Source: Escherichia phage 4MG. From it: 64,000 nucleotides of DNA. The stretch lies in the sequence record NC_022968.1. One strand, given 5' to 3'. Both the position numbers and the translations under genes were made by a program. Shown here piece by piece: positions 389 through 52,647 of this stretch; within the stretch, counting starts at the first letter, position 1, and the number at the start of each line of letters is the position of its first letter. A model generated the notes under the pieces. That model worked only from the letters and a program-made list of their open reading frames with translations, did not search any database and had not been told where the DNA came from.

Positions 389-877
389 GTGGTGCCATTG
401 ACGGCAGAACTTTGGGTTAAGGATGCAAGACAGATAGCAGCATTCAGGGAGAAGTTAATTCTGGAACAAGGCGGTCTTGATCCTGTACTTGGTGAGCCAC
501 TTCGCAAACCATGTCTCGATCATGATCACTTCGACGGAAAGTGTCGAGGAGTCCTTAGCCAGTGTGTGAATACGTTTGAAGGATATGTCCTGAAGGCTTG
601 GATGAAGTACGTTTCTGCTTACACAGAGACCTCGTTGTCCACAGCGCTTAGAAATCTTGCTGACTACTTGGAACAAGATTTCAGTGGGTATCCTATTCAT
701 GCTGGCTACAAGGACGACATGCTGAAGTTTTTGAGAAGATGTACCAATGAGAAGATCATTGAAAGGGCTGAGTCGGATCTCGGCCTCATCATTCCGAAAG
801 GAACTCAGAAGCATGACAGCATCACACTTTACCTTACGGAGTTTGTCAGACAGACGGAGGAAAGATTTGCTGAATAA
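389..877 (+). CDS. Endonuclease VII-like (T4 gp49 family) nuclease
   Basis: Motif LDHDHFDGKCRGVLSQCVN matches the Endo VII DHDH..G..RGLLC..CN signature; GTG start. Confidence 0.55.
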   Translation: MVPLTAELWVKDARQIAAFREKLILEQGGLDPVLGEPLRKPCLDHDHFDGKCRGVLSQCVNTFEGYVLKAWMKYVSAYTETSLSTALRNLADYLEQDFSGYPIHAGYKDDMLKFLRRCTNEKIIERAESDLGLIIPKGTQKHDSITLYLTEFVRQTEERFAE

Positions 878-4764: not shown

Positions 4765-4845
4765 CAAAGGTTCCAGTAATCCGTATCTTGGTTGTATGAA
4801 TTGCGGGGAGAGTTTCTCCCCGATTATAGGCAGAATGGAGAATAC

Positions 4846-5322
4846 ATGAGTAAAACAAAACGCAAACCTACCCAACACATTTCGGTCACTTTGGACTTCC
4901 TGAGAACCGTTCCTGGATTCGATGTGACACAAGAAAGTGGACTCCGCGCTGCCCTTTATGCAGTAGGATTCCAAGTCTCCGACAGTGAGGGTAATCCTAA
5001 GCAAGTAACTATGCTTAACAACAAAAATGTACGATGTGCTAATTTGCCATATTTGTACCGTAAGACCACGATCTTTGTCGGTGACATGCGTCCGGACTAT
5101 CCGTATGCAAAAATTTATAACGGCGTTGACATCCTTGATGTCGGTGTGTATTCAGAGCGCGACATGGAGTTCGTTATCGACTTGCCTTATGACATCCCGG
5201 TAAACGAAAAAGTCAACACCCGTAAGTACACAAAACGCGGTGACCGCCCAGACTCGTTCGATATTACGTTCAATAGTGAAGATGAAGCACGTCTGAGTGA
5301 CGCATTTGGTCTGGGGGACTAA
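4846..5322 (+). CDS. hypothetical protein
   Basis: Track ORF 4792-5322 trimmed to ATG with GGAG RBS; preceded by hairpin CGGGGAGAG-TTT-CTCCCCG. Confidence 0.5.
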   Translation: MSKTKRKPTQHISVTLDFLRTVPGFDVTQESGLRAALYAVGFQVSDSEGNPKQVTMLNNKNVRCANLPYLYRKTTIFVGDMRPDYPYAKIYNGVDILDVGVYSERDMEFVIDLPYDIPVNEKVNTRKYTKRGDRPDSFDITFNSEDEARLSDAFGLGD

Positions 5323-5552
5323 TGAGTAAAGAGAAGACCAAGTGGAAAGACCGTGGCTTTGATGATAAGCATCACTACGCCGGGTGGCTCTACTTCAATG
5401 ATTTGACCGATGACAGTAAGATGTACGATGATGTTTACTATGATCAATATTCTGGTAAAATAATCAATGTCACTGCTCCGTCTGAAGAAACACCTCAAGA
5501 CGAGGAAGTTGACGAAGCCGATAAATATCTTGCTCAATTCGAAGAGAAATAA
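5322..5552 (+). CDS. hypothetical acidic protein
   Basis: ORF; start overlaps upstream stop. Confidence 0.5.
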   Translation: MSKEKTKWKDRGFDDKHHYAGWLYFNDLTDDSKMYDDVYYDQYSGKIINVTAPSEETPQDEEVDEADKYLAQFEEK

Positions 5553-5561
5553 GGAGAAAGT

Positions 5562-7877
5562 TTGATCAATACAGTTGTAAAGAGTGATGGAACAGAAGTT
5601 GTGTTCGAGCCGGAACGTCTTAACAAAGCAGCAATCTTTGGTGATGACGGCAATGGCAACTGGTCACATATCTCAATGGACGCTTACAAGCGTCTGTATG
5701 ACGGTTGCACCACTCGTGAAGTAAACCAGGCATTGATCGACGCTTGTGTAAGTCGTAAAGATGAAGCTCACTCCCGCATGGCTGGACGTGTTCTCATCGG
5801 GCAGATCTACAAAGAGGCGTATGGTGGTTTTACAAAGATCCCTACGCTGTTTAACTTCTACCACTACATGACCAATATCGGCTACTGGGAAGATATGGGT
5901 TATGACTCTTTCGACCTGATTAAGCTGGAAGAAGCTATTGATCACTCGAAAGACCTGAGTTATGGTTATGCGGTTCTGAAACAGTTCCGCGATAAGTACG
6001 GTATCAAGGACAACATCAACGATGTTCTGTTTGAATCTCCGCAGATGATGTTCATGGGTATCGCAATGGCAGTAATGAAACGTATGCCGAAGGAACGCCG
6101 TATCAATGACGTTATCCAACTGTACACGTACCTGTCTGATCTGAAGATCAATGCTCCAACGCCGTACCTGAATGGTCTGCGTACTGGTCGCACTGGCTAT
6201 GCGTCATGTTGCATCATCAAAGCAGACGACACAGCTAAGAGCATCGGTGTTGCTCGTGAAGTTGCGTACACAATGACGGTTGCACAGGCCGGGATTGGGT
6301 ATTACCTGTCCTCCCGTTCAATCGGTGATGGTGTCCGTGGCAATACGATCAAACACATGGGTAAAATCCCATATTACCGTGGGATTGACTCTGGTGTGAA
6401 AGAGAACCGTCAGTCAACTCGTGGTGGCTCTGCAACAGTTTCGTTCTTGGCTATCGACCCACAAGTCGAAGACCTGATGAAGCTGAAGAACCCGCTCACA
6501 GTGACCTCTAAACGCCTGAACACAATGGATTACTCCATCGGTATTAACCAGTCGTTCATGAACCGTGTGGCTAAGAACCTTGACTGGATGCTGGTCTCTT
6601 ACAAGGATGCACCTCAGTTACACGAGGGTATGTTTAAGATGACCATGCAGGAGTTCGATGCGGAAGTTGCTCGTATCGCAGCGGATAAGAAGATCCCTAA
6701 GACTTGGGTTAAAGCCCGTGACTTAGCTCTGGAGATCATCACACAACGAGCAGAAACAGGTCGCCTGTACGTGTACTGGCCTGATGAGATGAACCGACAC
6801 ACGCCGTTCCTGGAGACAATTTACTCCTCTAACCTGTGTCAGGAAATCTGTCTGCCGACCAAGGGCTACAAAGATATGCGTAATATCTTCAACCCTGTTG
6901 CAGACGATGGTGAGGTTGCGCTATGCTTCCTGTCCTCTTTGGTTGCTGGTCGTGTTACTCCTGAAGAGTACGAGGATGTTGCTTACTACACCGTCCTGAT
7001 GATCGATAACGTTATGGATATCATGGAATATCCGTATGAGAACATGAAGCACACAGCCGAATCTCGTCGTTCGATTGGTGTTGGCCTGACTAACCTTGCT
7101 CACTACATCGCGAAACACAAAGTCGCGTATGGTTCTCCGGAAAGCAAGCAGTTGGTTCACGATCTGGCAGAACTGCACAGCTACAGCCTGCACAAGGCAA
7201 GCTTGCGACTGGCGAAAGAGCGTGGTGTGGCACCGTGGATGCATAAGACCAAATACCCTCAGGGTTGGTTGCCTATCGACACCTATAACAAGGCAGTTGA
7301 TAGTGTTGTGAAGAATCCGAGTCTGAAGCAGGACTGGGAAACTCTGCGACAGGAAATCATCAAGAATGGTGGTATTCGTAACAGTGTTCTGGAAGCGTAT
7401 ATGCCGAACGAAAGTTCCTCATTGGCTACCAACACAACCAACGGTCTGTATCCGGTACGTGATCATGTGATCTTCAAGAAATCGCCTCAAGGCTCTGTGC
7501 TGTTTATTGTGCCTGAGTATGAAGAACTGAAGGATTACTACACCTCTGCGTGGGATATCAACACAAACGACCTGATTGACATTTACGCCATCATTCAGAA
7601 GTTCGCAGGCCAGGCAATCAGTGCTGACCTCTACATCGACTACACCCAGTTGAAAGACGGGAAGATTTCGATGAAAGACCAGATTGGTTATCTGATCCGT
7701 GCGACGAAGATGGGGATGAAGACCTGGTACTACCTGAACTCGAAGGTTGGTGCTGGCGACTCCCTCACCGCAGAACTTCAGGCGAAGAAAGAAGCAGAAG
7801 AGGCCACCCGCAAGGATTATCCTCTGATCGCTGACAACTCTGTCGAAGATCCGTACTGTGAAGGTTGTGCATTGTAA
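5562..7877 (+). CDS. nrdA: ribonucleotide reductase class Ia large subunit
   Basis: 771 aa; N-terminal ATP-cone-like segment, SSNLCQEI active-site motif, C-terminal YCEGCAL Cys pair; TTG start after AAGGAG. Confidence 0.9.
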   Translation: MINTVVKSDGTEVVFEPERLNKAAIFGDDGNGNWSHISMDAYKRLYDGCTTREVNQALIDACVSRKDEAHSRMAGRVLIGQIYKEAYGGFTKIPTLFNFYHYMTNIGYWEDMGYDSFDLIKLEEAIDHSKDLSYGYAVLKQFRDKYGIKDNINDVLFESPQMMFMGIAMAVMKRMPKERRINDVIQLYTYLSDLKINAPTPYLNGLRTGRTGYASCCIIKADDTAKSIGVAREVAYTMTVAQAGIGYYLSSRSIGDGVRGNTIKHMGKIPYYRGIDSGVKENRQSTRGGSATVSFLAIDPQVEDLMKLKNPLTVTSKRLNTMDYSIGINQSFMNRVAKNLDWMLVSYKDAPQLHEGMFKMTMQEFDAEVARIAADKKIPKTWVKARDLALEIITQRAETGRLYVYWPDEMNRHTPFLETIYSSNLCQEICLPTKGYKDMRNIFNPVADDGEVALCFLSSLVAGRVTPEEYEDVAYYTVLMIDNVMDIMEYPYENMKHTAESRRSIGVGLTNLAHYIAKHKVAYGSPESKQLVHDLAELHSYSLHKASLRLAKERGVAPWMHKTKYPQGWLPIDTYNKAVDSVVKNPSLKQDWETLRQEIIKNGGIRNSVLEAYMPNESSSLATNTTNGLYPVRDHVIFKKSPQGSVLFIVPEYEELKDYYTSAWDINTNDLIDIYAIIQKFAGQAISADLYIDYTQLKDGKISMKDQIGYLIRATKMGMKTWYYLNSKVGAGDSLTAELQAKKEAEEATRKDYPLIADNSVEDPYCEGCAL

Positions 7878-16747: not shown

Positions 16748-18001
16748 ATGAAAGTATATCTGGTAGGTGGCGCAGTACGTGACGGTTTGCTTGGTCGTGA
16801 AGTTCATGACCGTGACTACGTGGTTGTGGGTGCAACGCACGAAGAAATGATCAATAAAGGTTTCACCCAGGTTGGCGCTGCTTTTCCAGTATACCTGCAT
16901 CCTGAAACCAACGAAGAGTATGCTTTGGCCCGTACCGAGCGCAAGACGGGCAACGGTCATACAGACTTCGAAACATTCTTCAGCCCGGACGTGACTTTGG
17001 TTGAGGATTTGTCTCGTAGAGACCTGACGATCAACGCTATGGCTAAAGATTTGGAAACAGGAGAGATCATCGACCCGTTTGGTGGTCAGTATGATATCGA
17101 AAAGAAAATTCTGCGTCATACAACGCTGGCATTCCTTGACGATCCTCTCCGCATCCTGCGTGTGTACCGATTCAAAGCACAACTGGGCAAAGACTGGGAA
17201 ATCCATGCCGACACTAAAGCTCTGTGCTTTAATAACCGTTATGGGCTGTCCCACATCAGCGGTGAGCGTAAGTGGAAAGAGATGGAGAAAGCCCTTGGTT
17301 CTGACAACTTCCGGGCATATGCTGAAGCAATGGCAGAGCTTGGTGAGTTGCCAGAACTGGATGCCCTGCGTGGAGTAGCACAACCACCAGAACACCACCC
17401 GGAAGGTGATGCTTTCGTTCATACACTGCTGTGTTTGGATGTGGCTGACCTTTACGAGGCTAACCCGTATACCAAATTTGCAGTGCTGTGCCATGACTTC
17501 GGTAAGGCGATCACTTTCCGTAAATACGGCAATCTGATCGGGCATGAAGAGGCAGGTCTGGAACCAGTACGTACATTGTGTGAGCGTATCCGTGTGCCTA
17601 ACGACTTCCGTGATGTTGCACTGTACGTAACAGAGCACCACACCCGTGTTCACTGTATCGCCCCTCGTGGCGGCAATAAGGGTGCAAAGCCACGGTCACT
17701 GATGAAACTGTTTGAGGCAGCAGGTAATGTGGCGAGCGCCAAAACAGCGATGAAGGTTGGTTCTTTGGCAGATGCGTGTTTCTGCGATGCAAAAGGTCGT
17801 GGTCCAACAAAAATTGCAGAGCCGTATCCGCAGGGTTATGTTCTGATGGATGCTTTCCGTTGCATGAAGGCTGTTGACACTAAGGTGATCTCTGCTGAGT
17901 GCCTTGCAAAAGGTAAGAGCGGTATCGAGATTGGTGAAGCTATTCGTGTTGCACGTATTGATGCTATCCGTAGCATCACCCAGCGTGAAATTAAGTGGTA
18001 G
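16748..18001 (+). CDS. cca: CCA-adding tRNA nucleotidyltransferase with HD domain
   Basis: MKVYLVGGAVRDGLLGREVHDRDYVVVG ... RRDLTINAMA ... HD-domain residues; close resemblance to E. coli Cca recalled from memory. Confidence 0.85.
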   Translation: MKVYLVGGAVRDGLLGREVHDRDYVVVGATHEEMINKGFTQVGAAFPVYLHPETNEEYALARTERKTGNGHTDFETFFSPDVTLVEDLSRRDLTINAMAKDLETGEIIDPFGGQYDIEKKILRHTTLAFLDDPLRILRVYRFKAQLGKDWEIHADTKALCFNNRYGLSHISGERKWKEMEKALGSDNFRAYAEAMAELGELPELDALRGVAQPPEHHPEGDAFVHTLLCLDVADLYEANPYTKFAVLCHDFGKAITFRKYGNLIGHEEAGLEPVRTLCERIRVPNDFRDVALYVTEHHTRVHCIAPRGGNKGAKPRSLMKLFEAAGNVASAKTAMKVGSLADACFCDAKGRGPTKIAEPYPQGYVLMDAFRCMKAVDTKVISAECLAKGKSGIEIGEAIRVARIDAIRSITQREIKW

Positions 18002-18009
18002 GAGAGACT

Positions 18010-18471
18010 ATGACCCTATTTGATTTTCCAAAACCGAATGGCAAGACGGTGCAGGAGAAGTACGAATATGCCAAGTTCCTAGTGTTGTGCAAGGAGCCTA
18101 CACTGGAACTTCTGCGATTCCTTGAAAGGGAGAAAGATAATTTTACGTACCGTCATCTTATGGTTGGTGGTTACACGTTTAGCTATGACCTTGTGTGGAG
18201 CAAAGGACTGCTCTTTGATAATCTTTCCCGGCAGGATACTACCTATCCACACTACGGTGTGGGCGGGTATGTAAGCAATGTCACCAGCAGGTACTATGGT
18301 TTTTCGTGGGCGAACCCTTATGAGGCATCTTTGTTGGAAAAGGCTGTTGACAACCTTATATTGTGGTCGGAAGAGCGTACAAGACTGGCAGAGATCCAGA
18401 GGGAAAAGGATATTCAAAATGCTCACCGAACTCGTGTCAAAGAATGGTTGAATACCCATGAAGAAAGCTGA
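18010..18471 (+). CDS. hypothetical protein
   Basis: Trimmed ORF after TAGGAGAG. Confidence 0.5.
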   Translation: MTLFDFPKPNGKTVQEKYEYAKFLVLCKEPTLELLRFLEREKDNFTYRHLMVGGYTFSYDLVWSKGLLFDNLSRQDTTYPHYGVGGYVSNVTSRYYGFSWANPYEASLLEKAVDNLILWSEERTRLAEIQREKDIQNAHRTRVKEWLNTHEES

Positions 18472-22231: not shown

Positions 22232-22882
22232 ATGGAAGAGATGCTATTGGTTGGTGGTGGAAAATCACCTGGGGTCACTGTCCTTGATATTGACCCATCA
22301 AAACAAACCCTTGGACAAACAAACCTTGTAGATGTCTACGGGCATCCGTTTACAAAGGTTGGGGCTGGCAATGCCATAATTCAGGATGTCTCTGGTCAAG
22401 GAAGGGTCATGTCCTTCCCAGGATCAGCATACTTCGAGACACCAATGACGGCAGACATAAGCATGGCAGTAGGTAAATTTGAAGTTCGTTCTGAGTTTTA
22501 TCTCAACAATACCGCAACTATGGCAGTATGGGGTACAGGGGATTATGTCTCTACAGGAAATATTGTTGGTGGGGTATTGCAGGTGGCGAACCTGTCTGGA
22601 GGTTCTCAGTATTTTGTTACAGACAATATTGGAAACTTTGTGAGGGCATTCTTCAGTCCGGCTGCTCCGGGGTGGAATGATTTCTCAATGATTTGGGACT
22701 CAACAACCAAAGTTATGAAAGTAGTGAATAACAACAATCCTTTAGCGACACAACAATACATAATTCCATATGGCTTTGGAAACGGGACAAAGTTGAGTGT
22801 CGGGGGAAGCTATCCACGAGGAGTCGGTTCTTATACCCTACAGGGATACCTGAAGCGGTTGCGGATCATTAAGTTATCATGA
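22232..22882 (+). CDS. hypothetical protein
   Basis: ORF. Confidence 0.5.
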   Translation: MEEMLLVGGGKSPGVTVLDIDPSKQTLGQTNLVDVYGHPFTKVGAGNAIIQDVSGQGRVMSFPGSAYFETPMTADISMAVGKFEVRSEFYLNNTATMAVWGTGDYVSTGNIVGGVLQVANLSGGSQYFVTDNIGNFVRAFFSPAAPGWNDFSMIWDSTTKVMKVVNNNNPLATQQYIIPYGFGNGTKLSVGGSYPRGVGSYTLQGYLKRLRIIKLS

Positions 22883-22955
22883 TTCATCCTGTCTCCTATA
22901 TAATATCTTGACTAACCATGATAAAATGGAGGTTAATAATATGATAGGAGGTAGT

Positions 22956-23444
22956 ATGTTTCAGAAATTAGTTCGTGAACACCCTACCCTACAAGAACAC
23001 TGGCAGACCCTGCTGGAAAAGGGGTTCATAGAGAACTCTAAGGGTTGCATCGCGCTTGTACGCAAGTACGCCGCTGATGAAAGAGTGCTTATTATCAGGG
23101 ATGCTAAAAACAGTATCCTTTATACCATTCGTGTAGGGCGATTGGAAGTTACTCGTGGCGTAGACACACAAAACCCGGTGACGTATACATTCCGTGTGGG
23201 TGATATGGGGAAGCTCGACCCAGAGCATCTGGAAGAGGCATTTGACCAATATGAGGGTTTTGAGACTTCCATCCGTGATCTCTATCGTACAATCGACAGG
23301 ATCATTAACGAGTATAAGAAGTCTCTTGGATGGGGATACAGAATCAAAGATTGGTTCAGAAACCCGCCGAACAAGGTGTTCTTTGCTGTATTCGTTATCT
23401 ATGCAATAATTAGCATGGTTGTGTATTTCTATCCACTTTTCTGA
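22956..23444 (+). CDS. hypothetical protein with C-terminal membrane anchor
   Basis: Trimmed to ATG after ATAGGAGGTAGT; hydrophobic C-terminus. Confidence 0.5.
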   Translation: MFQKLVREHPTLQEHWQTLLEKGFIENSKGCIALVRKYAADERVLIIRDAKNSILYTIRVGRLEVTRGVDTQNPVTYTFRVGDMGKLDPEHLEEAFDQYEGFETSIRDLYRTIDRIINEYKKSLGWGYRIKDWFRNPPNKVFFAVFVIYAIISMVVYFYPLF

Positions 23445-23455
23445 GGAGATTGTCT

Positions 23456-23851
23456 ATGAGGGACAGAGGAGATTATTACCGTAAGTACGCCGAGCGGAGG
23501 CGAATGATAGACCGTGAGCGTCGTTCTACGCCAGAAGGAAAGGCAAGGCAGTTACAGATCAGGCTTGAGCGTATCGAGGCTGAGAAACGTGCAACCATGC
23601 ACAGTGAGTGGGACATCTTTGTAAGAGAAGAGGCCAACCATCTTTGCAACGTGAGGATGTGTGAAACTGGCATCCGTTGGGAGCCAGACCACATGCTGCC
23701 CCTCCGGGCAAAGATTGTCTCCGGCCTTAACTGTGGTGATAATATCCAGGTAATCCCTGCAAAGATGAATCGTAGCAAAAAGAACCACATGATTTATACC
23801 AACCGCTTTGAGTGGATTAAGGATTTGGAGACCGTATGCAGGATGAAATGA
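23456..23851 (+). CDS. HNH endonuclease-like protein
   Basis: C-x4-C ... EPDHMLP ... N.Q..P ... NRSKKNH resembles the HNH motif. Confidence 0.45.
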   Translation: MRDRGDYYRKYAERRRMIDRERRSTPEGKARQLQIRLERIEAEKRATMHSEWDIFVREEANHLCNVRMCETGIRWEPDHMLPLRAKIVSGLNCGDNIQVIPAKMNRSKKNHMIYTNRFEWIKDLETVCRMK

Positions 23852-24330
23852 TTAGACTGTTTGTAAAAGACACCAGCCACGAGGTGATAAGCAAACTCCC
23901 CGGAATATCTAGTGCTGTTGCACAGGTAAAGTCCGGGGTTTGTGGGGCAATTGTTTTTGTCGTGAAGTCAAAACACAACATTGATTCTGAAGGCATACTC
24001 AATCCAAGATTGGTTATCACAAAGAGTGCTGGTAAGAATGAGCAGATATTTATGATAGCCACGAGTAAGGATGAGAAGATTTGGATTCATCCGGACGAAG
24101 TTTTCATTGGTAACACCCAGGTCTACAACCGGGACATGTTCTTTGATGCTTCTGCTCCAACTGAGGAAGAAGTCCAAATGCTGAGAATGGCTAAAGGTGC
24201 GGATTTGGATGCCCTTATGAAGGCATTTGGGAAAGTCCCCGGAAGGATTATGGAAAGGATAATGTCCGGGACTTTTGTGGAAGAGTACACAGCGGTAACC
24301 AAAGAAAAGGTAATCGTTTTAATGGGATAA
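23836..24330 (+). CDS. hypothetical protein
   Basis: ORF, last plus-strand gene before a terminator. Confidence 0.5.
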   Translation: MQDEMIRLFVKDTSHEVISKLPGISSAVAQVKSGVCGAIVFVVKSKHNIDSEGILNPRLVITKSAGKNEQIFMIATSKDEKIWIHPDEVFIGNTQVYNRDMFFDASAPTEEEVQMLRMAKGADLDALMKAFGKVPGRIMERIMSGTFVEEYTAVTKEKVIVLMG

Positions 24331-24356
24331 CCCGCCTTGAGCGGGTTTTCTTTTAT
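24331..24356 (+). terminator. rho-independent terminator
   Basis: CCCGCCTTGAGCGGG followed by TTTTCTTTTA. Confidence 0.75.
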
Positions 24357-31356: not shown

Positions 31357-31914
31357 GTGACTAAGAAAAGAACAGAACTCAAGTTGTATAGACTAGTTTT
31401 CATGCTGGACCATATCAAAGAGTGCGATGTTGATGAGACTGGGTATTTGATATATCCAACAACAGACAATAAGTTGTACGACATATACATACTTGCTGAA
31501 AATAAAGAAAGTGTCATATTCAGGGCGGGAAGCTCCATAGCGGATCGCCAATCCTATTTTGGGATTGGTAATTTTTGGGGTGATGTAGAGGTCCTGAAAG
31601 TGGAAGAGATCCCCAGTGAAGACTATAAGGAATATATCATCACCGACACCCCTTTTGAAGGGGGTGGATTAAAGGTCTGGTGTTCAGGACCTGGTTATGA
31701 AAAGAGTAAATGGGAAGAGCTATGCGATGTCAAAGAAGGTACTAATATGCTCCGTGTATCAGACCTCAATGCTCACGCCGGGTGTGGTGCAGTACCTGCC
31801 AAAACGATAGAGGCTGCGCTTGAGAGATACAGGCTAGAAAGGGCAGAGCAAGAGCGCAGACACAAGGAGCGGGAGGAACGGAAGCTCAAGAGGCAGGCAA
31901 AGAAAGTAAAGTAA
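31357..31914 (+). CDS. hypothetical protein
   Basis: Lys/Arg/Glu-rich C-terminus; followed by a terminator. Confidence 0.5.
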   Translation: MTKKRTELKLYRLVFMLDHIKECDVDETGYLIYPTTDNKLYDIYILAENKESVIFRAGSSIADRQSYFGIGNFWGDVEVLKVEEIPSEDYKEYIITDTPFEGGGLKVWCSGPGYEKSKWEELCDVKEGTNMLRVSDLNAHAGCGAVPAKTIEAALERYRLERAEQERRHKEREERKLKRQAKKVK

Positions 31915-32566: not shown

Positions 32567-32802
32567 AAGAGCACGAGTTCAAAATACGTTTCGACAAAGC
32601 CACAGGTGAGTGGCGTGTATGGGTGAAGGTTCCGTTCCTGTTCTTCTGGACCTGCTGGCAGGTTGTTTTCAAAACCCAGAATGGCATATACGGAAATCCG
32701 TTCTTTGATAGCGAAAGAGACTGCGAGAAAGGCATCGAGAAGTGGAAGCTGGAAAACGCACCGGACTATGAGCGTTACAACACAACCCACCGCAAACTCT
32801 AA
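32563..32802 (+). CDS. hypothetical protein
   Basis: ATGA overlap. Confidence 0.45.
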   Translation: MKEHEFKIRFDKATGEWRVWVKVPFLFFWTCWQVVFKTQNGIYGNPFFDSERDCEKGIEKWKLENAPDYERYNTTHRKL

Positions 32803-32811
32803 GGAGAACAC

Positions 32812-33099
32812 ATGGCTTTCCACAAGGTTGTAAAAGCGCCTGCGAAACGGGCGCATATAAAGAATTACCCACACAAGAAGTCTGAAGCGAGAGACCGAAG
32901 AGTGAAGTGGTTATGGGACTATACAAAATCACTTCTTGGGGTTATCCTCGTAAACAGCGGCTATCATAAGTTTCACTTCTACGAACAATGGAGTGCTGTG
33001 AAAAAAGAGCTTAAAGAACTCGATGCTTACGATGAGCGAAACACCTGGCTCATTATCTCAGATGTTAAGTGGGAGCACAACAGATTTTATCGGTGGTGA
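32812..33099 (+). CDS. hypothetical protein
   Basis: RBS TAAGGAGAACAC; last gene before the non-coding region. Confidence 0.5.
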   Translation: MAFHKVVKAPAKRAHIKNYPHKKSEARDRRVKWLWDYTKSLLGVILVNSGYHKFHFYEQWSAVKKELKELDAYDERNTWLIISDVKWEHNRFYRW

Positions 33100-33112
33100 C
33101 CACACAAAAGGG

Positions 33113-34834: not shown

Positions 34835-34852
34835 TACTTGGTGTGACTTTGA

Positions 34853-35062
34853 TCAGATAAACATTGCAGCATAATGATCGTAAAGGTCTTGCGCTTGTCT
34901 GGCAGGCCAGCGGCTTTCATCCACCGGGACACGTAGATCAATCGGGCGGCGATCTTTCAATCCGTTAACATGAAAAAATGTTTCACCTGTAAGCTGTACG
35001 ATCTCCAGTTTAACGAGGTTGTCAGAATCTTTTACGGTCTGCTGAATGAGAATAGTAGTCAT
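34853..35062 (-). CDS. hypothetical protein
   Basis: Trimmed ORF; minus-strand GTGGAG RBS. Confidence 0.45.
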   Translation of the reverse strand: MTTILIQQTVKDSDNLVKLEIVQLTGETFFHVNGLKDRRPIDLRVPVDESRWPARQAQDLYDHYAAMFI

Positions 35063-35068
35063 TTGCAA

Positions 35069-35434
35069 TTACTCCACAATTGTGATGGTTTGACCTGGTA
35101 ACAGGAAATTCCCGGTTTTATCGTCAAAAATTCCGGTTGCACTTGTTACGGTGACCGTTTCGCCTGATGTCACGATCATAACTTGGGATTCAGTTGGATA
35201 ATCAAAGGTGTAAAGGCGAGGTGTTAACGGCTTGCCGCTTTCTTTCGAATAGTTAACATCATAATCATAAACGGCTTGACATTTGATCGCTACCGTTTCG
35301 GCCTTGTAATAGTGGTTATCATAGCCATAGCCACGCATAAACGGCGCGGATATTTCCAGGACTTCACACAGCGAACCACGAAACAACATATCGCCTTTTT
35401 TCAGGTCTAAAAGGTTGATTTTCTTAAGATCCAT
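35069..35434 (-). CDS. hypothetical protein
   Basis: Leader hairpin plus AGAGGTAAACAAAATG. Confidence 0.5.
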   Translation of the reverse strand: MDLKKINLLDLKKGDMLFRGSLCEVLEISAPFMRGYGYDNHYYKAETVAIKCQAVYDYDVNYSKESGKPLTPRLYTFDYPTESQVMIVTSGETVTVTSATGIFDDKTGNFLLPGQTITIVE

Positions 35435-35457
35435 TTTGTTTACCTCTCAAAGTGTAA

Positions 35458-35474
35458 CGGGGCGACTAGCGCCC
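35458..35474. repeat. GC-rich leader hairpin (family member)
   Basis: GGGGCG-ACTAG-CGCCCC between two minus-strand genes, about 20 nt upstream of the start codon. Confidence 0.6.
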
Positions 35475-35484
35475 CCGATGATTA

Positions 35485-35862
35485 TTACTGATAAGCGGGA
35501 TCGTTGGTGATGTCGATCCAATGAGTTAAATCAATTTTGCCTTTTTCTTTCATTTTCTCGATCAGGCGGTCGGCTAATGTCTCAGAACGAACATAAACAT
35601 TCTCGCTAAAATCCTGGCCTGTTTCATCGTCGATCATTTCGCAATATTCGATTTTACCGATGAAAGCATGATTCAAGGCGTAAGTTTTACCAGTAAACCA
35701 GTTGTGTAAATGAATCTCGCATTTATAATCATCGCTACGGCCTTCAGTAGTCATAACGTCGATCAGATCACCTTTGAAAACTGAAAGATTCCACATGAGA
35801 TCTTTAGTTTTACCGCCAAAATCTTTAGTTTCTACGGTTGAAGCCAGGTTAATGATCGACAT
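35485..35862 (-). CDS. hypothetical protein
   Basis: First gene of a minus-strand unit; RBS AGAGGTAAATCA. Confidence 0.5.
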   Translation of the reverse strand: MSIINLASTVETKDFGGKTKDLMWNLSVFKGDLIDVMTTEGRSDDYKCEIHLHNWFTGKTYALNHAFIGKIEYCEMIDDETGQDFSENVYVRSETLADRLIEKMKEKGKIDLTHWIDITNDPAYQ

Positions 35863-49529: not shown

Positions 49530-49912
49530 GCTGTCTCCAGATAGTCTTTCAGATATTCGATGACGTAGCTACGTGCATAGTTCTCATCAGCATCGTTATG
49601 CCACATTTTAGTGACAACACCAGTCAATTTGTATAGTGAACGTTCAAAATGGTTCATCCCCGGAAGAATACTCACCATAAAATCCTCTTCCTCACTAATT
49701 TCAAGAGGATTAACAGTGAAGTCTGGTTGAACTAGTGTCTCCCAGGCTCCATTTTTGAACCGTTTTAAGGTCAAGGCACGACGATTTGAAGAGGTAAGAT
49801 ACTCAGAGTAGTCATCCCCCTGGTGAAAACCGATCCTGACCATAGCCCCACTGTACATAAAATCAACATCCACAGTGAGGCGCTCTACCTTCAGCCTATT
49901 TTGCGTGTTCAT
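49526..49912 (-). CDS. hypothetical protein
   Basis: ATGA overlap. Confidence 0.45.
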   Translation of the reverse strand: MNTQNRLKVERLTVDVDFMYSGAMVRIGFHQGDDYSEYLTSSNRRALTLKRFKNGAWETLVQPDFTVNPLEISEEEDFMVSILPGMNHFERSLYKLTGVVTKMWHNDADENYARSYVIEYLKDYLETA

Positions 49913-51332
49913 CTAAGTCAACAGCCCTCCCAAATGGTGGGTCGTACTTGGATTTGTTACGTCCACACAGCACCCACAACGTATCCCACTTCTTACCCCA
50001 GTCTTTTTTGCGTGAGGTAAGGTCTTCAATGTACCCATCAGTGAAGATTATCACATCTTTTGCATCAGGGATATTCTTTTCGATGTATTCAAAGGCAACA
50101 CCAGCGCGTGTACCACCTGTGGAAGTCACATTATAGTCCAGCATCTCCTTGATGTTATCCTGTGTGTACACTTTCACTTCCCCAACCATCGTAGACCAGC
50201 AGAAAAGTGTTACCCGGAAGCACTTATACAGGGTGCACAGGCCAATAATCTCATTGAATATCCTGGTCATGGTCTGTCTGCTGATAGAACCCGACACATC
50301 GAAGCATACAACGATGTCGATTGTCTCAGATTGCTTCCTTCCCGGAAGAATAATGCTCTGTTTGTGGGTGATTGCCCCATAATTACGCAGTACCTGGGTC
50401 ACCGAGCCAGACCTACGAGCGGGTTTACGGTACGAAAGGTGCGACCTCACACGAGAAACCATACGTTGTTTAATGATTTTCATGTAGTCAATGTGTGGTT
50501 TCCGCATTCTTGCAATCAATTCCCGCGCTTCTTTCGGCCCTTCACCCCCGGCAGCACTCATTGCAGCATCAATCAGCCCAGCAGACCACGCAAGATTCTC
50601 ATCTTTGGCGATTGGGCCGAGGCTTGGGTGCGGGTCTACATACCCAAGGATGTCACGCTCAGGGTCATAATCCCCGATATGTGTACCCATAGGGTTGCCA
50701 GTAACCGCTTTCCCATTGTAGATCATCTCGTAAATTTCTTCTGCTGTCTTGTTTTGGAATGCAAAATCACAATAGCAGTAGGCAAGGAATCCAAATTCTT
50801 TGTCTTTATTGAACTTAGTTTGCGCCCCCAGAGGGAAGAACTTCAGGGTTTTATTCCTTGGCCCCAAGTCTCCAGCCACCAAATCTGTGTTGATGTACTG
50901 ATCCGCTGCGATATTGTACATCTTGGAGTTGAAGCTTTTACCACGGGCCATATGGTCGTTGGTGATATGGCGTATTTCATGCATGAGAATAACCACCACT
51001 TCTTTTGGTGTTTTCTTGCGATAGAATACGTCTACATACGTCTTGTAATCATCCTTCTGTTGTTGTGTCATTGTTGGATGATTGTCAATACGATCAAACA
51101 CTTTCTTTTTGCGCTCTGCTGGCATACCCATAATGAACTCAGGGTTGTAATACAGATTACGATGGTCTGTTGCAGCCGTTGGCAACCAACGCCAGTCAGC
51201 GATGATCGGTAAAGAACTCAGCAAAGTTCCGTAAAATGGGCGATGTTGCAGCAATGCAATACGTGCTGACTGAATTAGTTTTAGCGCTTCATCTTGAAGC
51301 TTAGAGATCATCTCAGATTCATCTTTGTACAC
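49896..51332 (-). CDS. metallopeptidase-like / von Willebrand factor A domain protein (DUF2201-like architecture)
   Basis: HEIRH (HExxH) in N-terminal half; DVSGSI (MIDAS DxSxS) in C-terminal half; start set at GTG with GGAG RBS. Confidence 0.55.
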   Translation of the reverse strand: MYKDESEMISKLQDEALKLIQSARIALLQHRPFYGTLLSSLPIIADWRWLPTAATDHRNLYYNPEFIMGMPAERKKKVFDRIDNHPTMTQQQKDDYKTYVDVFYRKKTPKEVVVILMHEIRHITNDHMARGKSFNSKMYNIAADQYINTDLVAGDLGPRNKTLKFFPLGAQTKFNKDKEFGFLAYCYCDFAFQNKTAEEIYEMIYNGKAVTGNPMGTHIGDYDPERDILGYVDPHPSLGPIAKDENLAWSAGLIDAAMSAAGGEGPKEARELIARMRKPHIDYMKIIKQRMVSRVRSHLSYRKPARRSGSVTQVLRNYGAITHKQSIILPGRKQSETIDIVVCFDVSGSISRQTMTRIFNEIIGLCTLYKCFRVTLFCWSTMVGEVKVYTQDNIKEMLDYNVTSTGGTRAGVAFEYIEKNIPDAKDVIIFTDGYIEDLTSRKKDWGKKWDTLWVLCGRNKSKYDPPFGRAVDLDEHAK

Positions 51333-51344
51333 AGTTATCTCCAA

Positions 51345-51372
51345 ATAAAAAAGGCCATCTATATGATGGCCT
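51345..51372 (-). terminator. rho-independent terminator (minus strand)
   Basis: Minus-strand GGCCATCATATAGATGGCC followed by TTTTTTATTT. Confidence 0.65.
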
Positions 51373-51381
51373 GATTATAAT

Positions 51382-51645
51382 TCACTCTTCTACAGGATGC
51401 AAGAACTTTTGTGGTAAAAAGTGATCAAGCCCTTCTATTCTGAAACACCAGGCCAACTGAGCACCAGGAGCACCGGGGAAATGTGGGATAGCAAACAAGA
51501 CAATCCCATCAACTTTTCCAATTACGAGTCGCCCCATAGAGGTTGTTGATACCTTTTGACCGAACTTGATATCCGGAATAAAGCCTGCATCCAACATTTT
51601 CTTTTCAGGAGCCGACGCGGGTCGGCCCAGCATTTCTTCGTACAT
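51382..51645 (-). CDS. hypothetical protein
   Basis: TAATG overlap with upstream gene. Confidence 0.45.
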   Translation of the reverse strand: MYEEMLGRPASAPEKKMLDAGFIPDIKFGQKVSTTSMGRLVIGKVDGIVLFAIPHFPGAPGAQLAWCFRIEGLDHFLPQKFLHPVEE

Positions 51646-52577
51646 TACACCACCTTGTTGAGCATCGCAGCAATCTTAGGCAGGCCCATCTCTGTCTGAA
51701 TGATCAGTTGGGTCAGCGCCTTTTCCATTTTCTTCGACACAATGATGAAGTTGTCTTTAGCAAAACCAACTTTAAGGTCCATAATCAGGATCGCCTTTGG
51801 TTCACCAGACAGCTTCTCTCCGGTCAGAGAGCAGGTATTGCGAATATACTTCGCTTTGAACTGTGCATAGGTCACAGAAACGTTCATACCAGCGTCGGAG
51901 AATGTCTTGCAGTAGTTGGCGTAGGCCAGCGCTACAGCAACATCATCAGGCAGTTTTTGCTTCTCTTCCGCTGGTGCTGTAGTTTCTTCTGCAACCGGAG
52001 GCTGTTTATGGAAGTGCTGTTCAGCAAGTTCCATTGCGGAAGACGCGGTGCGCTCTTTAGGTTCCGGGTGACGTGGAAAATCTTCTGCAACAACAGGTTT
52101 TTCTACAACTTCTGAAGTATCTACTGGCATTTCTTTCTCCTCTTTTGGAATATATTTGGTTTTCAGTTTTTCCATGTGCTCTTTTGACATGTTGAGCATC
52201 ATTGCTTGTACGATTTCACGGTCAAGTGGCTCAATTATAGTGATTGCCGTCTTCTTGTCAACCAAACAATCTTTCAGTTCGTTAGCACGTTGAAGAACAA
52301 CACAGACGTTACCACGTACATAACCCTTCTTATCGTTGATACGCTCAACGGTTGGGTACAGCGGGTCTTTTTCACCATGCACAGAGCGCATACTGAAGTC
52401 CATATTGGTATAGTCACATTTACCCATACCAAGAAGCTTTTCACCCATCATGAACCAGTCATCAAGGGTCAGACTGAATTCCAGGCCACGTTTCTTTGTG
52501 CGTTCAACCTTTTTACGGTAACGTTCCTCTAGACTTTTGATCTCACTGGCGGTAAATTTCTTTTTCACATCAAACAT
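51645..52577 (-). CDS. hypothetical protein with degenerate HNH_3-like segment
   Basis: ERINDKKGYVRGNVCVVLQRANELK resembles the C-terminal half of HNH_3; minus-strand AAGGAG RBS. Confidence 0.45.
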   Translation of the reverse strand: MFDVKKKFTASEIKSLEERYRKKVERTKKRGLEFSLTLDDWFMMGEKLLGMGKCDYTNMDFSMRSVHGEKDPLYPTVERINDKKGYVRGNVCVVLQRANELKDCLVDKKTAITIIEPLDREIVQAMMLNMSKEHMEKLKTKYIPKEEKEMPVDTSEVVEKPVVAEDFPRHPEPKERTASSAMELAEQHFHKQPPVAEETTAPAEEKQKLPDDVAVALAYANYCKTFSDAGMNVSVTYAQFKAKYIRNTCSLTGEKLSGEPKAILIMDLKVGFAKDNFIIVSKKMEKALTQLIIQTEMGLPKIAAMLNKVV

Positions 52578-52647
52578 TTTCTACTCCTTGGGTTATTCCC
52601 GTTCTTGTTGGGAGAATTATCCTGGATTGTGTCCCCACTGTCAACAC

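Follow-up and report, generated by a model that had tools for sequence, protein, structure and literature searches.

A 64,000-nucleotide stretch of the genome of Escherichia phage 4MG (sequence record NC_022968.1), called the window in what follows, was analysed for three genes that an earlier note had described as HNH or endonuclease VII-type nuclease genes. All three open reading frames (ORFs) are present: gene 1 at 389-877 (plus strand), gene 2 at 23456-23851 (plus strand, in a frame that is open from a TTG codon at 23450) and gene 3 at 51645-52577 (minus strand). Gene 1 starts with a GTG codon and encodes a 162-residue homologue of the T4 gp49-type endonuclease VII (EndoVII). Gene 2 encodes a putative small HNH nuclease, whose N-terminal half is helical and rich in arginine. 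Gene 3 encodes a 310-residue protein, conserved across the subfamily and annotated there as 'anti-sigma factor / HNH endonuclease'.

Hidden Markov models (HMMs) of the PHROG families matched gene 1 with phrog_423 'endonuclease VII' (E=1.1e-35), gene 2 with phrog_1035 (E=5.6e-19) and gene 3 with phrog_3118 'HNH endonuclease' (E=8.5e-106). By these matches and by their motifs, all three proteins fall in the His-Me finger (HNH/EndoVII) superfamily. The ORFs and folds proposed in the earlier note were thus confirmed, while the homing biology that it had attached to them was not. With Pfam, Endonuclease_7 matched gene 1, although below its threshold, and no HNH model matched genes 2 and 3. A scan of the three proteins against NCBIfam gave no matches. 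Profile-profile comparison of gene 2 with gene 1 and of gene 3 with gene 2 detected no direct relationship; the only thing linking the three families is phrog_1035, which was matched by genes 2 and 3 alike. HMMs built from each family found no second copy of any of the three in the window.

Position, conservation and composition of the three genes

The window belongs to a Seunavirus-like member of the Vequintavirinae (rV5-like myophages). Its nucleotide identity with Cronobacter phage GAP31, Escherichia phage LNA4 and Enterobacter phage EC152 is 85-91%, and weaker matches were obtained with about 60 further Vequintavirinae. When the window was compared with positions 1-68,000 of GAP31, 58,564 of its 64,000 nucleotides were colinear. 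Fifteen short window segments have no blastn match in the syntenic GAP31 region. A single one of them touches any of the three genes, a 162-nucleotide segment at 23360-23521 that enters the 5′ end of gene 2 by 72 nucleotides.

Synteny was followed in phages GAP31, SSE-121, rV5, Mydo and Hena1, not every gene being compared in every genome. The order gene 1, small ORF, exonuclease subunit of DNA polymerase is kept in the window, GAP31, SSE-121 and rV5. In both GAP31 and rV5, as in the window, gene 3 comes before a VWA/metallopeptidase gene, so that rV5 shares the synteny of genes 1 and 3. Gene 2 stands directly behind the homologue of a 178-residue virion protein in Mydo and Hena1, which belong to two further genera. 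The virion-protein gene and gene 2 of GAP31 have an extra gene, GAP31_106, between them. Sporadic presence or absence was not seen among close relatives, all three genes being present and syntenic in every one examined. The comparison of insertion sites suggested in the earlier note thus found the genes at the same positions in relatives.

Copy numbers in phage records were obtained by tblastn with each protein. Gene 1 was found at 494 places in 493 records and gene 3 at 262 places in 261 records. Full-length, syntenic gene 2 occurred in 58 records, which make up essentially all genomes of Seunavirus, Mydovirus and Henunavirus in the collection searched. The ratio of non-synonymous to synonymous substitution rates (dN/dS), computed against GAP31, was 0.022 for gene 1, 0.052 for gene 2 and 0.044 for gene 3, as compared to 0.03-0.16 for flanking genes. 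Identity to GAP31 was 98% for gene 1 (neighbour, 94%), 92% for gene 2 (upstream neighbour, 80%) and 95% for gene 3 (neighbour, 94%). With respect to rV5, gene 1 was 64% identical and its neighbour 50%. The z-scores of guanine plus cytosine content were 0.04, 1.07 and -0.45 for genes 1, 2 and 3, respectively, and the dinucleotide distances of the three genes were within the background range. No NUMOD, helix-turn-helix (HTH), AP2 or zinc-finger targeting module was found in the three proteins with Pfam and NCBIfam.

Real homing genes of relatives were used for contrast. In SSE-121, gp192 (143 residues, SSE-121 positions 5180-5611) carries HNH_3 and NUMOD4 and is inserted between thyX and the next gene. 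In rV5, gp066 lies in an intron of the terminase gene and carries HNH_3 and an HTH domain. These two proteins, out of three homing-type genes of relatives tested, passed the Pfam cut-offs. An 'HNH (homing) endonuclease' is listed under the same SSE-121 match in the records of PVP-SE1, NINP13076 and others, and the gene is absent from GAP31. There is no homing gene after thyX in the window either, since the whole region aligns to GAP31 as one block; both the window (about 4800-4880) and GAP31 show a short intergenic gap only. In phage CB7, 21 HNH homing genes were described that are shared unevenly with relatives (PMC7344957).

These data bear on the claim that all three window genes are free-standing homing endonucleases whose positions mark recent insertions. 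Their nuclease folds do come from the superfamily that supplies most phage homing enzymes, and the Vequintavirinae carry many true HNH homing genes (rV5 gp066 and gp087, SSE-121 gp192, the 21 genes of CB7). However, the window genes are fixed in position and single-copy in all relatives examined, with dN/dS values of 0.02-0.05, a conservation at least equal to that of their flanks and a normal composition; they have neither NUMOD, HTH or AP2 domains nor a Pfam HNH_3 or HNH match. Recent mobility would also agree with the relatives of the gene 2 nuclease core that stand alone elsewhere (in a Jerseyvirus structural module, in opposite orientation, and in a Drulisvirus early region) and with the GAP31 indel located exactly at the 5′ boundary of gene 2, but no GAP31-unmatched DNA spans the genes. 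Position, copy number, conservation, composition, colinearity and the contrast with real homing genes together refute the homing interpretation, to which we give hardly any credence. The earlier note had named loss of catalytic residues, besides identical positions in relatives, as a sign against its own reading. Genes 1 and 2 retain their catalytic residues, and gene 3 has lost them in a formal sense only. We are confident that the window holds three vertically inherited His-Me finger genes that are functionally unrelated and none of which is homing, and we hold the full three-gene account with that same confidence.

The largest GAP31-unmatched segments are found at 34841-35858, 31357-31914, 32650-33102 and 18000-18457 and encode small proteins. 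No nuclease was present among six ORFs tested from these four of the 15 segments: four of the six belong to PHROG families of unknown function (phrog_1507, phrog_29154, phrog_30110 and phrog_19588) and two were unmatched. No sign of a nuclease or of a mobile element was seen in these segments, which are accessory early-gene cassettes of a typical kind.

The endonuclease VII of gene 1 and the HNH protein of gene 2

The gene 1 protein (389-877) is 100% identical to the annotated 'endonuclease VII' of Escherichia phage 4MG, and in relatives it is labelled 'EndoVII packaging and recombination endonuclease'. Using phmmer, it was aligned with residues 34-125 of T4 EndoVII (structures 1e7d and 1en7, E=0.011). 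Gene 1 contains the motif LDHDH...N..EG, in which D44, H45, H47, N61 and E64 correspond to T4 D40, H41, H43, N62 and E65. In the gene 1 alignment of 26 sequences, D44, H45, H47, R53, G54 and N61 are invariant, and E64 is nearly so. The zinc ligands of T4 EndoVII, which we take to be C23, C26, C58 and C61, have no counterparts anywhere in the Vequintavirinae homologues aligned. At the first two of these positions gene 1 has a leucine and a valine, respectively, or no residue; at the other two it has S57 and V60. The four-residue segment of T4 EndoVII that carries CxxC is missing.

Two points argue against assigning gene 1 to functional EndoVII enzymes. Its score with Pfam Endonuclease_7 (PF02945) is 22.4 bits, 1.2 below the gathering cut-off of 23.6 bits. 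Moreover, the zinc cluster is needed for the stability of T4 EndoVII, and gene 1 is without it. The sub-threshold score probably results from the absence of the zinc cysteines. Among gene 1 homologues of 68% identity or less, most have a precomputed PF02945 match; the rV5-type homologue (64%) is one of these. Judged by its sequence, gene 1 is a lineage-wide EndoVII variant in which the metal-binding and catalytic residues are kept and the Cys4 cluster is lost, and which would cleave DNA as its homology implies. By analogy with T4, it may act as a resolvase of branched DNA and Holliday junctions that clears junctions before packaging. A clade-wide, zinc-cluster-free EndoVII goes slightly beyond the current annotation.

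The reading frame of gene 1 is open upstream, at 329-388, and encodes there a basic stretch (IRRKRVKSPASKPKARKKPV) similar to the N-terminal extensions of homologues. In GAP31 the annotated start of the gene is at the position equivalent to 329, where the window has an ATC codon. No ATG, GTG or TTG codon occurs in this frame between 284 and 389. The N-terminal extension may have been lost in the window, or its translation may begin at a non-canonical codon.

For gene 2, the ATG at 23456 is a likelier start than the TTG at 23450, because the homologues begin there; residues are nevertheless numbered here from the TTG. The protein shows the pattern W-x2-DH-x-PL...N-x-Q-V-I-P-A-x2-N-x2-K, with a canonical His-Asn-Asn core. 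Its key residues are D80, H81, N98, N107 and K110, of which D80, H81, N98 and N107 are invariant in 20 homologues (63-89% identity). The usual CxxC pairs, and with them a (CxxC)2 zinc site, are absent, the only conserved cysteines being C66 and C95.

Several results weigh against this assignment. The nuclease call for gene 2 derives from the PHROG profile and the motif. No Pfam family matched at E<=10, and a search of PDB sequences with the single sequence and with a narrow profile gave nothing useful. The AlphaFold2 (AF2) model has a mean predicted local distance difference test (pLDDT) score of 70.8 and falls below 50 at core residues 83-93; Foldseek with this model, weak in its core, returned noise and no meaningful match. 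The late-promoter motif reported for rV5 was not enriched in the window and had no match near gene 2.

At the equivalent locus of rV5, gene 2 is absent and an unrelated gene, gp129, is found. In Jerseyvirus VSt10, the lone gene gp07, which runs opposite to the structural genes around it, encodes a protein 44% identical to the gene 2 core; the core also resembles an early-region protein of Drulisvirus KpV71. Because of these two resemblances, the sequence suggests that gene 2 originates from free-standing HNH genes. Across the three genera, gene 2 identity was 92%, 77% and 65%, as compared to 80%, 66% and 50% for the upstream gene, and gene 2 is better conserved than both its upstream and its convergent downstream neighbours. 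It would have entered the common ancestor of Seunavirus, Mydovirus and Henunavirus a single time and then been kept by selection at one locus. Since it is fixed in the clade and better conserved than its neighbours, we infer that gene 2 was once a free-standing HNH gene and has been domesticated to serve the phage.

Alternatively, gene 2 could be an ancient homing endonuclease that became fixed in the clade and persists by residual selfish activity, with no benefit to the phage. The intact active site, the free-standing appearance of the homologues in small phages and a clade-limited spread, with gp129 at the rV5 locus pointing to a single acquisition, would all agree with such a history. A fixed selfish gene should however decay, whereas gene 2 exceeds its neighbours in conservation and has a dN/dS of 0.052; in addition, possible recipients such as the rV5 type, whose flanking gene shows 28% amino-acid identity, have diverged too far for homing by homology. 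We consider residual selfishness improbable and retain domestication as the reading of gene 2.

The transcription unit of gene 2 comprises two virion-protein genes (22232-22882 and 22908-23444), gene 2 itself and a 164-residue ORF (23836-24330). A terminator-like hairpin on the plus strand at 24329-24347, found in a terminator scan, ends the unit. In Mydo, a terminator is annotated directly 3′ of the gene 2 homologue. The protein encoded immediately upstream of gene 2 (22908-23444, plus strand, 178 residues) matches phrog_7821 'virion structural protein' (E=3e-87) and is a distant homologue of rV5 ORF 133, with 28% identity. We have taken this ORF as gp133 of the rV5 paper, where gp133 is among the predominant virion proteins identified by mass spectrometry (PMC3606486).

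The segment 23360-23521, at the 5′ edge of gene 2, is a hotspot of indels. The extra gene of GAP31, GAP31_106, is 612 bp long and is described as 'similar to structural protein of Prochlorococcus phage P-SSM7'; the window, Mydo and Hena1 are without it. In Salmonella phage NINP13076 (2501-3923), a gene 2 homologue ends early, near residue 92, right next to a MoxR-like AAA ATPase gene whose usual place is elsewhere. The NINP13076 record is 161 kb long, as compared to about 146 kb in relatives, and this arrangement suggests a rearrangement or an assembly artefact. The three gene 2 matches of NINP13076 were considered as a sign of mobility and rejected, since they reflect this truncated copy beside the MoxR ATPase gene.

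Gene 3, T4 Srd and the restriction enzyme PacI

Gene 3 (51645-52577, minus strand) encodes two domains joined by a linker. Its N-terminal domain (about residues 1-112; 52240-52577) is of the Srd family and resembles a PacI-type His-Me finger. The linker (about residues 146-207; 51957-52142) is acidic, proline-rich, variable in length and predicted to be disordered. The C-terminal domain (about residues 208-310; 51645-51956) is a second beta-beta-alpha copy in which the catalytic positions are replaced. An alignment of 30 homologues (31-95% identity) showed the same organisation, with two conserved domains and a variable, gapped linker. In the AF2 model both domains have a pLDDT of about 90 and each contains a beta-beta-alpha unit; the linker, residues 146-207, is below 50. 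Over roughly its first 100 residues, gene 3 has matches to phrog_4592 and phrog_1400 too, both of them T4 Srd-type families, and no Pfam HNH family matched gene 3 even at E<=1.

The relationship with T4 Srd was confirmed in two ways. Comparison of the N-terminal domain with the N-terminus of Srd by hhalign gave a probability of 96.5% (E=8e-10, 87 columns), and tblastn of gene 3 detected Srd with E=7.8e-5. The authors of the rV5 genome had already noted the relationship between rV5 gp11 and T4 Srd from PSI-BLAST (PMC3606486). Within the N-terminal domain, C54, Y56, E78, R79, Y86, N90, N99 and K102 are invariant, and E78-R79 stand where HNH enzymes have D/H-H. This set, together with R30, is invariant from the gene 3 family through T4 Srd, rV5 gp011 and a Vibrio phage protein, down to 22% identity.

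PacI offers a precedent for such a site. In two papers (PMC5714182, PMC4081073), PacI is described as having no catalytic histidine, with a tyrosine of the omega loop instead and the metal held by an Asp and an Asn. We checked the PacI sequence against the PDB and located D92, R93, Y100, N104, N113 and K116 in it. Gene 3 E78, R79, Y86, N90, N99 and K102 correspond to these six residues. The spacing (D/E-R, six residues, G-Y, three residues, N, eight residues, N, two residues, K) is identical in gene 3 and PacI. When a profile of 41 Srd-type domains was run against all PDB sequences, PacI was the sole significant match, in the expected register (E=1.8e-4), nothing else scoring below 0.1. PacI is also the top structural match of the gene 3 model, whose fold is closest to it. 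With the gene 3 sequence alone or with a narrow subfamily profile, the search of the PDB gave nothing useful.

The domain is widespread. The Srd-type profile matched 30,435 representative clusters (50% identity) at E<=0.001. In the top 149 proteins, which contain 260 such domains, the Cys is present in 99%, the D/E in 96%, the Arg in 96%, the Tyr in 97% and the two Asn in 100% and 95%; 103 of these proteins carry two tandem Srd-type domains. The domain occurs about once per phage genome (789 places in 768 records). In 35 family members tested, the domain was covered by no Pfam model, those of HNH families included. Across phages, these proteins are labelled 'HNH endonuclease', 'anti-sigma factor', 'anti-termination' or 'Srd'.

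The C-terminal domain of gene 3 has strands at residues 262-265 and 277-280 and a helix at 282-295 in the AF2 model. The Srd-like family HMM matches residues 227-288 (independent E=7.9e-5). I264, L265, F272 and E285 occupy the catalytic positions, of which only N276 is kept. The domain is still strongly conserved, with P210, D212, C249 and N276 among its invariant residues. It is an inactivated copy of the same fold. Thus, of the earlier description of the gene 3 motif as degenerate, the part concerning the C-terminal domain holds, while the N-terminal domain is a conserved variant.

From these data we tentatively propose that the Srd family may be built on a PacI-type His-Me finger with a tyrosine in place of the catalytic histidine, and that these early phage proteins could be metal-dependent nucleases or nucleic-acid clamps. 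The N-terminal domain of gene 3, homologous to both T4 Srd and PacI, keeps the PacI-style constellation of an acidic metal ligand followed by Arg, an omega-loop Tyr and two Asn, and the C-terminal domain would probably pair with it as an intramolecular mimic of the PacI homodimer. Three observations speak against this proposal. The hhalign comparison of the subfamily alignment with PacI was weak (probability 9%, E=0.0035). The Cys4 zinc sites of PacI are not conserved in gene 3, where C54 (PacI C63) is the only cysteine kept and T, L and A stand at the positions of PacI C66, C109 and C112. Finally, the homology to T4 Srd is limited to the N-terminal domain. In the literature searched, no earlier work linking Srd to HNH or PacI was found, and no description of the Srd fold. 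The link between Srd and PacI is an only moderately novel result, as 'HNH endonuclease' labels already circulate in databases.

What the motif does can be read in two ways. Gene 3 may be a catalytically dead pseudo-nuclease that only contacts proteins, as an anti-sigma decoy or an activator of RNase E, its motif holding the fold; we regard this as a serious possibility, close to evenly balanced. The canonical general-base histidine is indeed absent, and the C-terminal domain shows that the fold persists without catalytic residues. In that domain, however, where the fold is without the function, the same positions have drifted to I, L, F and E. The N-terminal residues are invariant from T4 to Vibrio phages and present in 95-100% of the 260 domains; they align with PacI D92, R93, Y100, N104 and N113 and do not belong to the hydrophobic core, and their constellation fits the published PacI site, with Asp and Asn on the metal and the omega-loop Tyr for His. 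As to protein contacts, T4 Srd is reported to act by binding: according to Qi 2015, as cited in PMC4980113 and PMC7430671, it attaches to the N-terminal half of RNase E, which is the catalytic one, and stimulates the enzyme, so that host mRNA decays faster. An antisigma role was proposed by the rV5 authors (PMC3606486), but no sigma-70 region was detected by Pfam. More generally, no sigma-factor domain was found in gene 3 with Pfam and NCBIfam at E<=1. Since there is no sigma-like domain and the structural neighbours are nucleases, the 'anti-sigma' label is without support.

Conversely, gene 3, and by extension T4 Srd, could be an active PacI-type tyrosine nuclease directed early against host DNA or RNA, with the C-terminal domain completing a pseudo-dimer. 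All residues aligned to the PacI constellation are conserved with identical spacing, PacI is the top structural match, expression from a sigma-70-type promoter is likely to be early, and the tandem intact domains in 103 of the 149 family proteins echo the PacI homodimer. Against activity stand the missing PacI zinc sites and the published Srd phenotype, which is RNase E-dependent (as cited in PMC4980113 and PMC7430671). That each genome has a single copy in conserved synteny is neutral as to catalysis. We leave this active form as a possibility on the doubtful side. Whichever chemistry applies, the most likely role of gene 3 by analogy is that of an early host-takeover factor like T4 Srd, action through RNase E being known for Srd alone.

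The expression signals were also located. A sigma-70-type promoter-like site lies on the minus strand at 52616-52644, about 40 nucleotides upstream of gene 3 (TTGACA-17-GATAAT, 11 of 12 consensus matches). It matches in position the annotated 'Sigma70-type promoter; P11' upstream of rV5 gp011, and in both the window and rV5 the gene stands at a divergent junction behind such a promoter. A terminator scan detected a bidirectional terminator-like hairpin at 51352-51372 (minus strand; 8-bp stem with five GC pairs, followed by a T-run). It closes a short unit made of gene 3, which comes first, and an 87-residue ORF (51382-51645).

A perfect 12/12 sigma-70 consensus, TTGACA-16-TATAAT, is found inside gene 3 at 52234-52261 (minus strand), over codons 106-115 or so (LVDKKTAITII); GAP31 has the identical site. 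Transcription of the C-terminal half or of downstream genes could start from it, or it may simply be a by-product of the conserved peptide. Further downstream, the 482-residue protein encoded at 49896-51344 (minus strand) contains a DUF2201_N putative metallopeptidase domain and a VWA-like domain (Pfam E=4e-24 and 8e-12). In RefSeq, the orthologues GAP31_033 and rV5 gp012 carry the label 'HNH endonuclease', apparently in error. The MoxR-type ATPase, the usual partner of VWA/metallopeptidase proteins, is encoded elsewhere in GAP31 (GAP31_024).

Implications and comparison with known systems

The presence of HNH-like motifs is not enough to call a phage gene mobile: in the window, the three genes are shown by synteny, copy number and dN/dS to be domesticated or core genes. 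All three are already annotated in relatives, with some noise in the Vequintavirinae, where gene 3 is variously labelled and the VWA/metallopeptidase gene is mislabelled as an HNH endonuclease. The PacI-type tyrosine constellation shared by T4 Srd and its homologues makes the hypothesis testable by point mutants, also for the early protein of the Vequintavirinae. If Srd family members were nucleases or clamps, Srd-driven decay of host mRNA would need re-interpretation, and the Vequintavirinae protein would be a pseudo-dimer within one chain, of whose two sites one is live and the other dead.

As compared to T4 endonuclease VII (gp49; PDB 1en7 and 2qnc), gene 1 has a similar length and keeps the full catalytic set, but it is only about 22% identical and all four zinc ligands are replaced. 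With the homing endonucleases of phages (I-HmuI, or HNH_3 plus NUMOD type), the window genes share the superfamily, and gene 2 keeps the canonical His-Asn-Asn core. In contrast to those enzymes, the window genes are without HNH_3 and without NUMOD or HTH domains; they are position-fixed, single-copy and under strong purifying selection. The presence of the true homing genes of relatives varies between genomes, whereas the window genes keep a constant position.

PacI belongs to group 20 of the His-Me finger classification of Jablonska et al. 2017 (PDB 3ldy and 3m7k). It is a homodimer, whereas gene 3 combines an intact and a degenerate domain in one chain, and it is a bacterial restriction enzyme, whereas gene 3 is a phage early gene. 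With T4 Srd (NP_049634, 'postulated decoy of sigma factors'), the N-terminal domain of gene 3 has all motif residues in common. Srd, with its 248 residues, has no detectable second beta-beta-alpha copy, whereas gene 3 has one.

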